In this document: piece by piece, positions 47,289 to 52,821 of the stretch
How positions within the stretch are numbered: position 1 is the stretch's first letter
Layout: every line of letters starts with the position of its first letter
Assembly (NCBI GenBank): GCA_963821235.1
Contig: CAWGCS010000001.1
Location: 616,119 to 680,118, forward strand
Direction of reading: 5' to 3'
DNA length: 64,000 bases
From: an uncultured Chloroflexia bacterium
GTDB lineage: Bacteria; Chloroflexota; Limnocylindria; Limnocylindrales; CSP1-4
The notes under the pieces: generated by a model
Database searches by the model: none
The model's input: only the letters and a program-made list of their open reading frames with translations
Told to the model about the DNA's origin: nothing
Translations under genes and position numbers: made by a program

Positions 47289-48059
47289 GTGACGAGCGCC
47301 GCCCTCCCCCCGACGGCCGCCGCTCCCGCCGCCGGCAGCGACACGGCGCCGGGAGCGGGGACGGCCGCGCGCGCGGTCCTGGCCCTCCGCGGCGTCGGGA
47401 AGACCTACCCCAACGGCAAGGTCGCCCTCCGCGACATCGACCTGGCCCTCGGCGAGGGTGAGTTCGTCTTCCTGGTCGGCCCGTCGGGGGCCGGCAAGTC
47501 CACGCTCCTCCGGCTCCTCATCCGCGACGAGCTGCCGACCGCCGGCGAGCTCATCGTGGACGGCCAGGACCTCCTCCGCGTGCCCCGACGCCGGGTGCCC
47601 GAGCTCCGCCGCCGGATCGGCATCGTCTTCCAGGACTTCAAGCTGCTGCCGACGCGAACGGTGCGCGAGAACGTCGCCTTCGCCCTGGAGGTCACCGGGA
47701 CCCCGCGGGGGCGGATCGGGCCGGCCGTCGACCGCGCCCTCGCCGTCGTGGGCCTCAGCCCCCAGGCCGAGCAGCTTCCCACGACCCTCTCCGGCGGCGA
47801 GCAGCAGCGGACGGCGATCGCCCGGGCCCTCGTCCACGATCCGCGCCTGATCATCGCCGACGAGCCGACGGGCAACCTCGATCCCCTGATCTCGTGGGAG
47901 ATCATCCAGCTGCTCCTCCGCATCAACGAGCTCGGCGTCACCGTCCTCATGGCGACCCACAACGCCGATGTCGTGACCTCGCTCCGGCGGCGCGTCGTCG
48001 CCCTGGAGGAAGGCCGGATCGTCCGCGACGGGGTCGGCGGCTACCACCGCGAGGATTGA
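47289..48059 (+). CDS. ftsE: Cell division ATP-binding protein FtsE
   Basis: GPSGAGKST, VFQDFKLL, LSGGEQQR, ADEPTGNLDP. Confidence 0.92.
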   Translation: MTSAALPPTAAAPAAGSDTAPGAGTAARAVLALRGVGKTYPNGKVALRDIDLALGEGEFVFLVGPSGAGKSTLLRLLIRDELPTAGELIVDGQDLLRVPRRRVPELRRRIGIVFQDFKLLPTRTVRENVAFALEVTGTPRGRIGPAVDRALAVVGLSPQAEQLPTTLSGGEQQRTAIARALVHDPRLIIADEPTGNLDPLISWEIIQLLLRINELGVTVLMATHNADVVTSLRRRVVALEEGRIVRDGVGGYHRED

Positions 48060-48069
48060 GGAGCGCGAC

Positions 48070-48990
48070 CTGACCGCGATCGTCGGCTTCCCCCGCTTCC
48101 TGGCCTTCAGCATCGGTCGCGCGCTGCAGGGGATCCGGCGCAACGCGCTCATGAGCCTCGCCGCCATCGCGACGATGCTCCTGATGCTCCTCCTCCTGGC
48201 GGGTTTCTGGCTCCTCCAGGCGGGCCTCGTGGCCGGCGTCGCCTACGTCGAGGAGAAGGTCGAGATCGTGGCCGACCTGCGCGACGTCGCCGGGGCAGAC
48301 CCCGTGCTGGCCGTCCAGGCGCAGGCGCTCGCGGCCGAGGTGGCCGCCCTCCCCGAGGTCCGGACGGTGCGCTACGTCTCCAAGGAGGAGGCCCTGGCCC
48401 GCTTCCGGCAGCGCCTGCGGGAACGGAACCAGGTGGACCTCACCGGGTACCTCGACCGCAACCCGCTGCCGGCCAGCCTGGAGGTCAGCCTCGTCGACCC
48501 CCGGGAGTACCAGCCGGTGGTGGACCTGCTCTCGTCGCACGAGGAGGTCGTCGAGGACGTCGTCGAGGTCCAGCAGCTCATCCAGCGCCTGACGTCGGTG
48601 ACGGACGTCCTGCGGACCGGCGGCTTCGTGGTCCTCGTCCTGGTGGGCTTCGTCGTGCTCTTCATCATCGTGAACACGATCCGGCTCGCCGTGGTCGCCC
48701 GCCGCGAGGAGATCGAGATCATGCGGCTCGTCGGCGCCTCCGACGCCTTCATCCGCTGGCCGTTCATCTTCGAGGGGGCCATCGTCGGGCTCCTGGGGGC
48801 GGCCCTCGCGCTCGGCATCCTGGCCCTCCTGGCGCCCCCGGTCAGCGAGCTCATGTACGGCTTCTTCCGGGTCCTGCCGCTGCAGCTCGGGACGCTGGCC
48901 CGCGACGTCGTGCTCCTGGTGGGGGGAACGGGCCTCGGGGTCGGCGTCCTCGGCTCCTGGATCTCCGTGCGGAGCTACCTGACGAAGTAG
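48070..48990 (+). CDS. ftsX: Cell division permease FtsX (start probably CTG 48070; first ATG at 48151)
   Basis: RRNALMS, SKEEAL, NPLP, NTIRL..RREEIEIMRLVGA..FIRWPF..EG. Confidence 0.9.
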   Translation: MTAIVGFPRFLAFSIGRALQGIRRNALMSLAAIATMLLMLLLLAGFWLLQAGLVAGVAYVEEKVEIVADLRDVAGADPVLAVQAQALAAEVAALPEVRTVRYVSKEEALARFRQRLRERNQVDLTGYLDRNPLPASLEVSLVDPREYQPVVDLLSSHEEVVEDVVEVQQLIQRLTSVTDVLRTGGFVVLVLVGFVVLFIIVNTIRLAVVARREEIEIMRLVGASDAFIRWPFIFEGAIVGLLGAALALGILALLAPPVSELMYGFFRVLPLQLGTLARDVVLLVGGTGLGVGVLGSWISVRSYLTK

Positions 48991-49137
48991 CCAGCCGGAC
49001 CGGGTCGGCCGGCCGACGTTGGCGGCGGATCCAGTCCCAGGCACCCGGGCGACCGGCGCCCGAGGGCCCGTGGCCGACGGCCGATGTACGCTTCACCCTC
49101 GCGCCGACCGGCGCGCCGCACCCCCCAGGATCCGCCG

Positions 49138-50514
49138 ATGATCGAACCACAGGACCGCCAGCCGGGTGCGCCTGCCCAGGCTCCCGCCGCCGAGCTGCCG
49201 GCTGGCCAGCCGGCCCCGGCCCCCACCGCCGGGAACCCGGCCCGCCGGCGGATCGGGTCGCTGCAGGTCGCGATCGTCGTCGTCGCCATGCTGGCCGGCA
49301 GCGCCCTCTTCCTGTCCGGCTTCTCGCTGGGCGCCCGCACCGCGACCACCCCGGGGACCCCGGCGGCCGAGGCAGACCTGTTCGCCCCGTTCTGGGACGT
49401 CTACGAGTCGATCACCAAGAGCTACGTCGGCGAGATCGATCGCCAGAAGCTCGTCCAGGGCGCCATCGACGGGATGATCGGGGCGCTCGACGACCCGTAC
49501 TCCTCGTACATGAGCCCGGAAGAGCTCCAGAAGGCCCGCGAGGACGTCGCCGGCGAGTTCTCGGGGATCGGCGCGGAGGTGACCGCGCGTTCCACCGACG
49601 CCGGCGCGGCGACCTGCGCCACCATCGGCCCGACCTGCCGGATGGTCGTCGTCTCGCCGATCGACGGCTCCCCGGCGCAGCATGCCGGCGTGCTGGCGGG
49701 CGACGTCCTGACCGCGGTCGACGGGACGCCCGTGGACGGCCTGACGCTCGACGCGGCGATCGCGCGGATCCGCGGGCCCAAGGGGACGTCGGTCGTCATC
49801 ACGCTGGTCCGCGGCGACGGCCCGCCGTTCGACCTGACGATCGTCCGGGACACCATCGTCCAGCGCCAGGTGGAGGTCCGCGAGCTGGCCGGCGGGACGG
49901 TGACCTACCTGAGGATCGCGGGCTTCTCCGACAACGCGGCGCGGCAGCTGGAGACGGCCCTCCGGGCCGCCCGCGAGGCAGGCGTCGGCAAGTTCATCGT
50001 CGACCTCCGCGACAACCCGGGCGGCTACGTCACGGCCGCGCGATCGATCGCCAGCCAGTTCATCGGTCAGGGACCGATCTTCTGGGAGGAGGCCGCCGAC
50101 GGGACCCAGGTGGAGACCGACGCCGAGCCCGGCGGGGCGGCGACCGATCCCGGGATCCGGGTGGCGGTCCTGGTCAACGGCGGCAGCGCCTCCGCGAGCG
50201 AGATCGTGGCCGGCGCGCTCCAGGACACGAAGCGGGCGACACTCGTCGGCGAGACGACGTTCGGCAAGGGCACGATCCAGCAGTGGGTGGACCTCACGGC
50301 CGAGTCGGGCGGCTTCCGCCTCACGATCGCCAAGTGGCTGACACCCGACAAGCGCTGGATCCACCACACGGGCCTGACCCCCGACGTCGTCGTCCCGACC
50401 GCGAGCGCGGGGGCCGGCGAGCCGGGCTCGACGGGCGATCCCTATGTCGACGCCGCGCTCGACGTCCTCGACGCGGCGACGGGCTCGACGGTCGTCCAGC
50501 TCCGCGCGGCGTAG
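49138..50514 (+). CDS. ctpA: S41 C-terminal processing protease with PDZ domain
   Basis: DPYS, GIGAE, DLRDNPGG, SASASEIVAGALQD, TFGKG. Confidence 0.9.
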   Translation: MIEPQDRQPGAPAQAPAAELPAGQPAPAPTAGNPARRRIGSLQVAIVVVAMLAGSALFLSGFSLGARTATTPGTPAAEADLFAPFWDVYESITKSYVGEIDRQKLVQGAIDGMIGALDDPYSSYMSPEELQKAREDVAGEFSGIGAEVTARSTDAGAATCATIGPTCRMVVVSPIDGSPAQHAGVLAGDVLTAVDGTPVDGLTLDAAIARIRGPKGTSVVITLVRGDGPPFDLTIVRDTIVQRQVEVRELAGGTVTYLRIAGFSDNAARQLETALRAAREAGVGKFIVDLRDNPGGYVTAARSIASQFIGQGPIFWEEAADGTQVETDAEPGGAATDPGIRVAVLVNGGSASASEIVAGALQDTKRATLVGETTFGKGTIQQWVDLTAESGGFRLTIAKWLTPDKRWIHHTGLTPDVVVPTASAGAGEPGSTGDPYVDAALDVLDAATGSTVVQLRAA

Positions 50515-50537
50515 GCCGGCGCGGGGGGCCGAGGTCC

Positions 50538-50716
50538 TTGCCAGATTCCGCGGCTTCCTGTACGGTTCGCCCGACCGAAAGGAGGTGATGTGCAGTGACG
50601 GACAGTAGTCAGCGTCGTTGCACCACCTCGCAGGGAGCGGCCGCCTGACGGACGCCACCCGCGGGTGGGGCAACTTGAAACGCGTTCGAACGCCGGTCCG
50701 ATCGGACCGGCGTTCG
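50538..50716 (+). other. Candidate structured small RNA / 17-codon ORF unit
   Basis: TTGCCA-N17-TACGGT promoter, AAAGGAGGTGAT SD, GTG ORF 50595-50648, hairpin 50582-50629, 30-bp palindrome 50687-50716. Confidence 0.55.
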
Positions 50717-50789
50717 TGCGTCCGGGGATCGCCTGCGCCATGATGCGCGGCGTCCCGCCCGCACCACCGCCACCGAAGGAGCCCGACCG

Positions 50790-51254
50790 ATGGGCGAAGA
50801 GACGATCGCCCAGAACCGAAAGGCCCGCCACGAGTTCTTCATCGAGGAGACCTTCGAGGCGGGCATCGTGCTGACGGGGACCGAGATCAAGTCGATCCGG
50901 GCCGGCCACGTCAGCCTCCAGGAGGCCTACGCCCGGATCGAGCGGGGAGAGGCCTGGCTCGTCGGCGCTCACATCGCCCCGTACGCCGGCGGGAACCGGC
51001 TCAACCACGAGGCGAAGCGGACGCGCAAGCTGCTCCTCCACCGGGACGAGATCGACGAGCTGCTCGGCAAGACGAAGGCGAAGGGCCTGACCCTCGTGCC
51101 GCTGCGGCTCTACATCGATGACCGGAGCCACGCCAAGCTGGAGGTCGGCCTGGCCCGCGGCAAGCAGCTCCACGATCGCCGCCGCGACATCGCCGAACGC
51201 GAGGCCCGCCGCGACATCGCCCGCGAGCTGGCCGACGCCCGCCGAGGCAGGTAG
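50790..51254 (+). CDS. smpB: SsrA-binding protein
   Basis: NRKARHEF, EAGIVLTGTEIKSIR, RKLLLH, GKQLHDRR. Confidence 0.97.
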   Translation: MGEETIAQNRKARHEFFIEETFEAGIVLTGTEIKSIRAGHVSLQEAYARIERGEAWLVGAHIAPYAGGNRLNHEAKRTRKLLLHRDEIDELLGKTKAKGLTLVPLRLYIDDRSHAKLEVGLARGKQLHDRRRDIAEREARRDIARELADARRGR

Positions 51255-51272: not shown

Positions 51273-51839
51273 TCAGGCCTCGAGCGCCTCGGTGAATGCG
51301 GCCGGCAGGAGCCGCTCCACGATCACCACGTCGCGCCAGCGCCCGTCGAGGCGCCCGTGCCGCTCGTACGTGCCGACCTCGCGGAAGCTGAGTCCCTGAA
51401 GGAGCTGCCGGCTGGCCTCGTTCTCCACGAAGACGCGCGAGACCAGCTTCCAGAGACCCGCCTCGGCCGACGCTGCCAGGAGGGCCTCCATCGCCAGCCG
51501 GCCGACGCCGCGGCCGCGGGCCGCGCCGGCCACGTACACCGAGAACTCCGCCACGCCGGCGTAGCACGCCCGGGCGCGGTACTCGAAGGTGGCGGCGAAG
51601 CCGACGACCTCGCCGGCCGGATCCGCGACCACCACGACCGGATGGCGACCGTCGCTCCAGGCCGCGACGTCCTGCGCCGTCCGGTGCCGCGTCTCGAAGG
51701 TGGCGGTGCGCTCCTCGATCCCCTCGTTGTAGATGGCGGCGATGGCCGGGGCGTCGGCCGGTGTCGCCGCCCGGACGACGTGGCCGGCGTCCGCCCGGGC
51801 ACCGCGCCCGGCCGTCGGCCGGCCTGGCGACCCCGTCAC
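51273..51839 (-). CDS. Phosphinothricin/arsinothricin-type (ArsN1-like) GNAT acetyltransferase
   Basis: IAAIYNEGIEERTATFET, YRARACYAGVAEFSVYV, WKLVSRVF, WRDVVIVERL. Confidence 0.8.
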   Translation of the reverse strand: MTGSPGRPTAGRGARADAGHVVRAATPADAPAIAAIYNEGIEERTATFETRHRTAQDVAAWSDGRHPVVVVADPAGEVVGFAATFEYRARACYAGVAEFSVYVAGAARGRGVGRLAMEALLAASAEAGLWKLVSRVFVENEASRQLLQGLSFREVGTYERHGRLDGRWRDVVIVERLLPAAFTEALEA

Positions 51840-52315
51840 CGCGCCCGCGCCTCGCGAAGCGCCCGGGCGATCTGGGCGAGGTGCTGGACGTCGTGGGTGG
51901 CCATGTGGATGGCGTGGTTCTCCACCGTGATCCGGCCCTGCTCCTCGTGGCGGCCCGCCCGCGCCCACCCCGCCGGCTGGAGGGCCCGCAGGTCGGCCAC
52001 GACCGCCCTCCGGTGCGCGGTGAACGCGACGAACGCGCGGTGGAGGTCCTCGCCGGCATACCCGCGCTCGATCGCCCAGGCGTCCTGGTCGTAGGCCGGG
52101 AGGAAGGGCTCCCGCTCGTCGCGCATCGCCCGCAGCCGTTCGAGCGCCCGCTCCTCCGCGTCGCGCAGGTGGCAGACGACCTCGACGACGCTCCAGCCCT
52201 CGTCGCCGCCCCGGGCACGCCGAGCGAGGTCGTCGTCGACCACGGCGAGGAGCCCCTCCAGGGCGTCGGGTCCGGCCGCGAGGGCGGCGGTGAGATCGCT
52301 GGCGACGTCGTACAT
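51836..52315 (-). CDS. DinB family protein
   Basis: WSVVEVVCHLRDAE, HDVQHLAQI. Confidence 0.88.
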   Translation of the reverse strand: MYDVASDLTAALAAGPDALEGLLAVVDDDLARRARGGDEGWSVVEVVCHLRDAEERALERLRAMRDEREPFLPAYDQDAWAIERGYAGEDLHRAFVAFTAHRRAVVADLRALQPAGWARAGRHEEQGRITVENHAIHMATHDVQHLAQIARALREARAR

Positions 52316-52447
52316 CGGGCACCTCCGGCGTGTCGGACGGATGGTATCGCCGGCCCGCTGCCGGGGACCCCGACCGAACCCGGGGTAGAATGGGGACCGC
52401 CGGTCGTGAGGCCGGCGCGGGACGGCCGGTGCGCCGCTCCGATCGGT

Positions 52448-52821
52448 GGGGATGCGTGGTCTCGACGGGGCCCCGCAGCCCGGGAACGCGAGCCGAGGAT
52501 GCCGCTCTGGCCTCGACAAAAGGCGGCAAACCGAAGTACCTGCCAACAAGCAGCCTGCTCTCGCCCTCGCCGCTTAGGCGGTAAGGTGAGCGTGGAAGCG
52601 GCCTCCCCTCCGTGGGCCGTGGAAGCGTCACTCAGCGGAGGTGCAGCCCCGGCAAGCGCCGCGTAGCCGGGAGCGAAGCCCGATCTAGGGACACGTAGCT
52701 GGGCCGGTCAGCGCTCCTGCCGATGGGGGTGGGCCGGTCGAGATCAAGCATCGGACACGCTCGTAGTGGGTCCGGGTCACGGGTTTCGGACGGGGAGTTC
52801 GACTCTCCCCCATCTCCACCA
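52448..52821 (+). ncRNA. ssrA: tmRNA
   Basis: 5' GGGGATG pairs with 3' CATCTCC-ACCA with a G3-U wobble; GTTCGAC T-loop; tag ANKQPALALAA* at 52542-52577; TAGAAT -10 at 52386-52391; near smpB. Confidence 0.96.

Follow-up and report, generated by a model that had tools for sequence, protein, structure and literature searches.

What is encoded in the short interval between a C-terminal processing protease gene and smpB in the genome of an uncultured Chloroflexia bacterium: an RNA, a microprotein or a leader of smpB? The interval lies in the 64,000-nucleotide (nt) stretch of contig CAWGCS010000001.1 (assembly GCA_963821235.1; genome of 3,073,688 bases in 2 contigs, 95% complete) that is here called the window, to whose numbering all positions refer. 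An initial annotation, made from the sequence alone, had described in this interval a self-contained unit with a promoter, a Shine-Dalgarno (SD) sequence, a short open reading frame (ORF), a long hairpin and two palindromes, and had offered several readings of it, from a small RNA (sRNA) to a conditional leader of smpB. Our analysis of this element points to an autonomous mini-gene whose RNA of ~150 nt, judged by analogy, probably works like the small messenger RNAs (mRNAs) of the alpha-proteobacterial rre kind.

Organization and conservation of the unit

The whole unit, from promoter through terminator tail, occupies positions 50538-50722 of the + strand. Its promoter (50538-50566) consists of a -35 box, TTGCCA (50538-50543), a spacer of 17 nt and a -10 box, TACGGT (50561-50566). 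Downstream follow an extended SD sequence, GAAAGGAGGTGAT (50577-50589), which includes the 12-mer AAAGGAGGTGAT (50578-50589), and a mini-ORF of 17 codons (50595-50648; MTDSSQRRCTTSQGAAA) with a GTG start and a TGA stop at 50646-50648. In the minimum free energy (MFE) fold, hairpin 1 (50581-50629) is formed between the SD arm (GGAGGTG..GTGCAGTGACGGAC) and an anti-SD mimic inside the ORF (GTC..CGTCGTTGCACCACCTC), with GAGGTG (50582-50587) pairing with CACCTC (50624-50629), GTGCAGTGACG (50590-50600) pairing with CGTCGTTGCAC (50613-50623) and GAC-AGTA-GTC (50601-50610) as the cap. A second SD-like motif, GGAG (50634-50637), is found within the ORF 12 nt ahead of the stop codon, and hairpin 2 (50637-50655; GCG-G-CCG / CGG-A-CGC) carries the TGA stop in its loop. 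Hairpin 3 (50655-50670) corresponds to a 14-nt palindrome (50655-50668) that holds GGGTGG (50663-50668), and the predicted intrinsic terminator (50687-50722) comprises a perfect 30-nt palindrome (50687-50716; 13-base-pair (bp) stem) plus the conserved tail GTGCGT. The promoter, SD sequence, ORF, hairpin arms and both palindromes of the initial annotation were all found in the sequence exactly where it had placed them.

The conservation of the unit was examined without the use of any motif by comparing (blastn) the 275-nt intergenic stretch with the genomes of 60 relatives, 36 of them of the same genus. Full-length matches of 80-92% identity, covering positions 50537-50724 almost to the nucleotide, were obtained in 31 of these 36 genomes, with flanks that diverge and are unalignable; of the remainder, one genome had a weak match of 37 nt and four, which are 54-86% complete, had none. 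In the alignment of 30 genus sequences, the onset of conservation coincides with the -35 box and its end lies just past the terminator, and in all 30 the element is bordered by the protease gene (3' end) and smpB (5' end). Such a block, conserved from promoter to terminator, supports the earlier proposal of an unannotated, self-contained small transcription unit with a sequestered SD sequence.

Searches with sequence patterns extended the distribution of the unit. A scan of contigs from one genome per species for CGAAAGGAGGTGAT-N2-4-CAGTG returned at least 120 matches, and 73 of the 80 loci read from these were of Limnocylindria (Chloroflexota), according to the record titles. When the 20-mer AAAGGAGGTGATGTGCAGTG was looked for in 401 genomes sampled from the phylum Chloroflexota, at most 2 mismatches being allowed, a single match was obtained in each of 84 genomes and 0 with the reversed pattern. 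Matches were frequent in the families of the window's class (f1, 21/22; f2, 4/4; f3, 13/17; f4, 2/2) and were also detected in other families (f5, 5/6; f7, 4/4; f16, 5/5; f17, 8/12; f28, 6/11; f24, 4/28), the f16 tally including one genome flagged as unpublished (G098), on which alone no claim rests. Among the 70 phylum matches that were read (L160-L229), 65 shared the same layout, with a TTGnnn-N17/18-TAnnnT promoter, a long SD sequence, an ORF of 13-31 codons opened by GTG or ATG and, after it, an intrinsic terminator, and five (L160-L163 and L209) were ordinary or unrelated. Judged by its sequence, the unit is conserved in Limnocylindria and has diverged single-copy relatives in other Chloroflexota classes.

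An extended Shine-Dalgarno sequence and two predicted alternative folds

The 3' end of the 16S ribosomal RNA (rRNA) reads ...GGATCACCTCCTTTCT in one genome of the same genus and in seven other genomes of the class, and from these 3' ends a complementarity of 13 nt with the element (50577-50589) was deduced. In the genome of 3,073,688 bases the SD 12-mer has a single occurrence and the reversed-pattern control 0. The extended SD sequence was invariant in all 30 genus copies, which had been collected without use of the motif, and ACCGAAAGGAGGTGATGTGCAGTGA was invariant in the alignment of the window with 29 genus copies. The second SD-like motif recurs as well, in the form of GGAG or GAGG: it lies 12-13 nt ahead of the stop codon in 80 of the 90 unique ORFs from Limnocylindria, and at a distance of 14-15 nt in 23 of the 29 from other Chloroflexota.

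Folding of the RNA (50567-50720) yielded -85.2 kcal/mol (z = -5.4), a value reached by 0 of 200 dinucleotide shuffles. The fold reproduced the long hairpin that had been described as burying both the SD sequence and the start codon, and added a small hairpin with the stop codon in its loop and the 13-bp terminator stem. CGAAAG is unpaired and GGAGGUG paired, both in the MFE fold and in the alignment consensus, and RNAalifold retained hairpin 1 and the terminator when applied to 89 unique Limnocylindria RNAs (alignment A1). The arms of hairpin 1 (GGAGGUG..GUGCAG with CUGCAC CACCUC) are invariant or changed from G-C to G-U only, with two A-C exceptions. In this first state 87.4% of the cells of the MAFFT alignment were paired, versus 34-47% with the partners slid by 1-3 columns, a comparison that leans towards the structure, which was derived from the window's own fold. 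Changes on both sides were observed for 19 pairs, chiefly in hairpin 2, where compensatory changes include columns 73/98 (GC:27, AU:17) and 75/92 (GC:21, CG:15), and in the terminator, whose helix (helix 5) was 92.6% paired with seven such pairs in the 89-sequence alignment. The stop codon was unpaired in a hairpin loop in 75 of the 89 single-sequence MFE folds.

The SD sequence was paired in 49 of the 89 MFE folds, the others pairing the anti-SD arm ACCACC with the downstream GGGUGG. Upon blocking of the 13 SD nucleotides, which mimics a bound 16S tail, ACCACC re-paired with GGUGGU in 79 of the 89 sequences, which cost 5.2 kcal/mol on average. This second state (ACCACC with GGGUGG) fitted the alignment as well as the first, with 86.5% of cells paired and slid controls of both states at 32-47%. 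These predictions suggest a two-state RNA in which GGGUGG would act as an 'anti-anti-SD' partner of ACCACC in the 3' arm of hairpin 1, and such re-pairing would explain why GGGTGG is at least 90% conserved in alignment A1.

Sequestration of an SD sequence by a hairpin is also expected of a type I toxin mRNA, as envisaged in the initial annotation, or of an RNA thermometer, explanations to which we give next to no credence. By direct reading the encoded peptides are hydrophilic, rich in Ser, Thr, Arg and Cys and without a membrane segment, and no conserved antisense or opposite-strand promoter or partner was seen in the alignments, observations that lend the toxin idea no support. The element moreover resembles a housekeeping unit, single-copy and with a synteny fixed across the class, and a 13-bp G+C-rich helix is far more stable than known thermometer helices.

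Reading frame and peptide

The reading frame was followed in 93 unique Limnocylindria cores, two of which are cut by contig ends, leaving 91 complete. The distance from the GTG to TGCACCACC is 15, 18, 21 or 24 nt and keeps the frame in 89/89 unique cores. ORF length is 14-17 codons in 89 of the 91 complete cores, the remaining two being of the type found in other classes, with 24 codons. In the complete cores TAG, TAA and TGA serve as stop codons 45, 24 and 22 times, respectively, and the start is ATG instead of GTG in 2 of 90 ORFs from Limnocylindria and 6 of 29 from other Chloroflexota. In family f62 (L227-L229) and in L177, an ATG start is shifted 2 nt downstream (GCAGTATG or GCAGATG); because the ORF there still has ~24 codons, the position of the start, as read from these sequences, is tolerant of small shifts.

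These observations bear on the possibility of a non-coding RNA, trans-acting or of the 6S/Ms1 type, in which the ORF would be incidental. The strength of the fold, a conservation that is higher at the nucleotide than at the amino-acid level and the cataloguing of the related Rfam families CC2171 and Ms_IGR-5 as sRNAs would all be compatible with it. We nevertheless regard it as very improbable, given that length changes preserve the frame, that start and stop codons are exchanged for one another at fixed positions, that the SD sequence precedes the start codon by 7-9 nt, that no 6S, Ms1 or other family was matched at threshold and that the C-rich anti-SD segment is located in a stem and not in a loop. 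The initial annotation's sRNA or ribosome-binding decoy fares accordingly in two ways: ribosome binding is, by analogy with rreB, the best reading of the element, and a purely non-coding nature is at odds with the conserved frame.

The peptide behaves otherwise than its frame. Summed entropies of the three codon positions (27.3, 29.5 and 26.8; 68 unique ORFs in three length classes) reveal no periodicity, and because the three positions vary equally, the amino-acid sequence is, on this comparison, not selected as such, while frame, start codon and stop codon persist; that the ORF is translated would seem to count for more than the sequence of the peptide. The ending -AAA, whose likeness to the degron of transfer-messenger RNA (tmRNA) had been pointed out, is limited to the genus and replaced elsewhere by -MAV, -MTV, -IVA, -AGL and others, and the local tmRNA encodes the tag ANKQPALALAA, so that the resemblance has been dropped.

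That the peptide of 14-17 residues is itself the product, for example a ligand associated with the ribosome or with the protease, with RNA features that tune its synthesis, is improbable. The conservation of start, frame and stop would be in line with such a microprotein, as would the recurrence of a C-T-T-S core and of a small or hydrophobic C-terminus, and RreB and RreR, the peptides of two alpha-proteobacterial rre mRNAs, are each conserved within their own clade (PMC5711450). Against it stands the equal variation of the codon positions. The invariant C-T-T-S codons, devoid moreover of synonymous changes, fall on the anti-SD arm and are thereby accounted for by RNA pairing. Past the first few residues no relation is seen to the peptides of other classes, and Pfam and NCBIfam gave no match for the peptides of five relatives, with 23-31 residues, the window's own 17-residue peptide being too short for these and for protein searches. 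The same report adds that synthetic RreB and RreR were unstructured and that overproduction had no effect on growth (PMC5711450).

Comparison with known small mRNAs and RNA families

The closest analogues of the element are the rre mRNAs, described by Hahn et al. (PMC5711450). In their account, rreB of Bradyrhizobiaceae is a 165-nt mRNA adjoining tRNA-Gly, with a small ORF (sORF) of 14 codons and a perfect 17-nt complement of the 16S 3' end that takes in the GTG start codon's initial base; in the predicted hairpin, no more than 5 nt of this complement stay single-stranded. The RNA co-sediments with 30S subunits and is very weakly translated, and its half-life rises from 10 to 37 min upon replacement of GUG by UAG (PMC5711450). 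A related mRNA, rreR (18 codons), is present in Rhodobacterales, with analogues in Caulobacterales, Rhizobiales and Rhodospirillales, and the genomic context of rreB is not conserved in alpha-proteobacteria (PMC5711450). No function is reported for rreB or rreR; Hahn et al. 2016 (RNA Biol 14:1353) suggest that tightly bound ribosomes are trapped, the mRNA cleaved and the ribosome rescued (PMC5711450).

The element shares with rreB and rreR an extended SD sequence, predicted here to lie at the extreme 5' end, a GTG start, an sORF of 14-18 codons (17 here), a hairpin over SD sequence and start that leaves the first few 5' nucleotides single-stranded, a peptide not conserved between clades and a single copy per genome. 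Judged by its conserved promoter layout and the covariation in its terminator, it would also, like them, be transcribed as a stand-alone RNA, in a size range of ~150-165 nt. It differs in phylum, and 30S binding and weak translation are established for rreB only. Specific to the element are the location of the anti-SD partner inside the ORF, the conserved GGGUGG and its second fold, the SD-like GGAG 12-13 nt before a loop-displayed stop codon and the synteny with smpB, fixed class-wide.

Two Rfam families extend the comparison. In a sensitive Rfam scan the best, though weak, hit on the + strand was CC2171 (RF01867), a Caulobacter sRNA, which aligned to the element with 28.1 bits (gathering score, 75; E 3.9e-4 on 501 nt), and in a search of the whole genome with the CC2171 model the element was again the best match (28.1 bits, E 5.7e-4). 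Common to both are a 5' CGAAAGGAGGUGAU..CAGUG and a 3' terminator, whereas the middle of the model does not align and Rfam draws the SD sequence of CC2171 as unpaired. Other weak Rfam matches (P2, Scr6925 and microRNA families) fell either on the other strand or within the terminator palindrome, and were dismissed as chance. The element itself was not matched by any Rfam family in 17 loci from other Chloroflexota classes.

A metagenome scan for the CC2171-type 5' motif returned at least 119 matches, of which 80 loci were read (L231-L310) and 20 scored. Nine of the 20, with GTG ORFs of 21-29 codons, scored 73-95 bits as CC2171, and loci of the rreB type, with a 14-codon ORF adjoining a tRNA gene, reached 40-47 bits with the same model. 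The members with 73-95 bits have a conserved GTG ORF that often ends in x-E-V-x-x-x-stop, and judged by these sequences the CC2171 'sRNA' family would seem to consist of rre-type small mRNAs. In the phylum to which the genome of locus L057 belongs (genomes of ~1 megabase), no CC2171 was found.

Ms_IGR-5 (RF02471), an actinobacterial sRNA expressed in Streptomyces according to two papers (PMC8079986, PMC8780764), has a consensus that starts with an extended SD sequence (GGAAGGAGGUGGUCC) and holds UGU GAG GUG GCU GCC CGC UAG, a frame ending in C-E-V-A-A-R-stop in which GAGGUG lies four codons ahead of UAG, a layout as in the element. Its model (gathering score 45) gave no match on the element at E up to 10 in the element's own genome, and two metagenomic loci of the same layout (L262 and L286) matched it below threshold, with 31.7 and 38.1 bits (cut-off 45). 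Ms_IGR-5 is possibly the same architecture in a third phylum, a likeness of layout that we take as a lead.

Because the complementarity of the element falls short of the 16-17-nt rre hallmark and its scores stay below the family thresholds, we prefer to see in it a new variant, from Chloroflexota, of the small mRNAs with an extended SD sequence, and not a member of rre, CC2171 or Ms_IGR-5. The Rfam comparison that the initial annotation had named as a check gave the same answer, with sub-threshold matches only and so no known family. In the literature searched, extended-SD small mRNAs are reported only in alpha-proteobacteria, with no function for CC2171 and no small-RNA report for Limnocylindria.

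Several observations weigh against the small-mRNA reading. At the gathering threshold, Rfam found in the whole window only the tmRNA (52448-52821), and no 6S, Ms1 or other Rfam 15 family. The complementarity to 16S rRNA is 13 nt long and ends 5 nt ahead of the start codon, GTGCA separating the SD sequence from the GTG at 50595, and so differs from the rre hallmark, which is 16-17 nt including the first base of the start codon; a version with a 14-nt complement was, per Hahn et al., mostly not ribosome-bound (PMC5711450). A search of the window's genome (95% complete, 2 contigs) found no assembled 16S rRNA gene, and the anti-SD sequence was for this reason taken from relatives. Most of the wider sets were gathered with patterns of SD sequence plus start codon, so that invariance of these in such sets is by construction. 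Few independent insertion or deletion events lie behind the conservation of the frame, the sequences being related by descent, and both state-specific helices are invariant in sequence, so that covariation neither supports nor contradicts them. Of the RNA-library contigs, finally, one includes the promoter and extends beyond the terminator, and DNA may have been carried over.

Promoter, terminator and relation to smpB

The promoter layout TTGnnn-N17/18-TAnnnT was present in 121 of 124 unique Limnocylindria upstream regions, versus 0.4 per 124 in shuffles, and in these 121 the end of the -10 box precedes AAAGG by 10-13 nt, mostly 11. From the position of the promoter, transcription would start at ~50573-50575, and because the -10 box sits so close to AAAGG the SD sequence should lie within a few nucleotides of the RNA 5' end. 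A simple sigma-70 promoter and terminator scan called neither the promoter nor the terminator of the element, its criteria (-10 boxes resembling TATAAT; five consecutive T) being unsuited to a G+C-rich genome. The U-tract of the terminator is poor (UUCGUGCGU), which could make the terminator leaky. Relatives of the element were covered by short contigs of 107-262 nt in 4/4 RNA-library runs, from four studies of mixed communities, a hint too weak to establish transcription or RNA ends.

The tail 3' of the terminator (50712-50744; TTCGTGCGT) is at least 90% conserved across the 89 Limnocylindria RNAs. About half of the genus copies carry a (C/G)ATGAT motif ~17 nt after GTGCGT, which could be a candidate smpB promoter overlapping the terminator. 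On the other side of the unit, no terminator-like structure could be seen in the 23 nt that separate the stop codon of the protease gene (50514) from the -35 box, and the unit may for this reason also be transcribed inside a longer operon RNA with ftsE, ftsX and the protease gene.

The position of the element between the two genes is a property of the class. The protease gene is the same-strand upstream neighbour in 71 of the 72 Limnocylindria loci with that flank visible, and smpB the same-strand downstream neighbour in 68 of the 70 with the other flank present. The two exceptions to the latter are L077, in which the unit has the reverse orientation between these genes, and L078, in which smpB itself is inverted (convergent). 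In families f2, f3 and f4, smpB is downstream in 19/19 loci, and the protease gene is upstream in 17/19 and absent from that side in both f4 loci. The gap between terminator stem and smpB start ranges from 22 to 433 nt with a median of ~65 (68 loci); it is at most 60 nt in 22 of the 68, at most 40 nt in 5 and 22-100 nt in 51. With gaps so short, smpB transcripts in many genomes must, by the spacing of the sequence, either run across the terminator or begin inside it.

Outside the class the neighbour changes. Directly downstream, a biotin protein ligase gene (birA-like) was found in 15 of 19 loci (f5, 4/4; f7, 1/4; f17, 7/7; f62, 3/3), mreB in two, a hydrolase gene in one and no match in one, with a co-orientation that is partly a selection effect of a scan that picked same-strand ORFs. 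Pfam confirmed a downstream biotin ligase in two loci beyond these 19 (L170 and L176). In f16 the downstream gene is greA in L164 and L168 (Pfam), followed in L168 by a class II (D/K/N) aminoacyl-tRNA synthetase gene, lysS-like; L166 and L167 look alike by eye.

A cis-acting, translated leader of smpB, in which ribosome occupancy of the mini-ORF would set the choice between stop and read-through at the terminator (50687-50716), whether transcription came from the element's promoter or from the upstream ftsEX-ctpA genes, would account for the persistent same-strand smpB, retained even in the two f4 loci without ctpA upstream, for gaps that leave little room for a separate promoter, for the poor and possibly leaky U-tract and for the location of relatives in other classes, also directly upstream of a same-strand gene. 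The arrangement recalls leader-peptide attenuators of the trpL type, in which a short translated ORF and, after it, an intrinsic terminator immediately precede a gene. Unlike in these, no antiterminator was found, there is no shared run of regulatory codons and the downstream gene varies by class. We found no structure that competes with the terminator, the two folds differing only upstream of it and involving the SD sequence, the anti-SD arm and GGGUGG, and a ribosome at the stop codon would be ~40 nt away from it. The inversions in L077 and L078, the class-dependent downstream gene and the variable context of rreB (PMC5711450) also speak against this explanation, which we consider rather unlikely. 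The conditional smpB leader of the initial annotation keeps some probability on account of smpB closely following on the same strand, an obligatory role less so.

Proposed mechanism and implications

For the autonomous small mRNA that we favour, we propose that the 30S subunit would seed on the single-stranded 5' nucleotides (CGAAAG) and invade hairpin 1. The freed ACCACC arm would then re-pair with the downstream GGGUGG and lock the SD sequence open. Held by the over-long SD duplex, the ribosome would translate the short frame inefficiently, in a slow or self-limited manner, and terminate at the loop-displayed stop codon, 12 nt after the second SD-like GGAG. Selection would maintain ribosome engagement and the reading frame, and not the peptide. 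Because the terminator precedes smpB by 22-100 nt in most loci, read-through probably also feeds smpB, pointing to a possible link with ribosome rescue. The scheme is built on the anatomy of the unit, its conservation, the maintenance of the frame and the thermodynamic feasibility of two folds, from which we infer 30S binding, weak translation and output.

A structurally related single-copy unit is now seen in a phylum distant from the alpha-proteobacteria. Conservation of the frame and not of the peptide, together with class-wide adjacency to smpB, suggests that ribosome engagement is the selected activity, and the element offers a testable link to trans-translation. CC2171 and Ms_IGR-5, both filed as 'sRNA' families in Rfam, look likely to be small mRNAs of the same architecture. 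Whether the Chloroflexota element, rreB/rreR, CC2171 and Ms_IGR-5 belong to one ancient, cross-phylum class of single-copy 'ribosome-trapping' mini-mRNAs is a more distant speculation, which we find unlikely. Such a class would be marked by a 5'-terminal, perfect SD sequence and by a short frame with an SD-like motif close ahead of its stop codon, and its role would be to hold or probe 30S/70S particles and not to make protein; in Limnocylindria, stuck ribosomes or terminator read-through would then couple directly to the capacity for trans-translation.

Genomic neighbours

On the + strand, the genes between 47289 and 51254 are arranged in the order ftsE, ftsX, S41/PDZ protease, mini-mRNA and smpB. 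Pfam identified ftsE (47289-48059), ftsX (48151-48990), the S41 C-terminal processing protease, which is CtpA/CtpB-like with a PDZ domain (49084-50514; Peptidase_S41 1.1e-48, CtpB_N-like, PDZ), and smpB (50790-51254; SmpB 6.1e-60), in agreement with the neighbours ctpA and smpB named in the initial annotation. The tmRNA gene (94.6 bits in Rfam, + strand) is situated 1.2 kilobases downstream of smpB. Between smpB and tmRNA, a GNAT acetyltransferase ORF (51273-52631) runs on the opposite strand; since its mechanically delimited extent overlaps the tmRNA gene by ~180 nt, the real GNAT gene is probably shorter.

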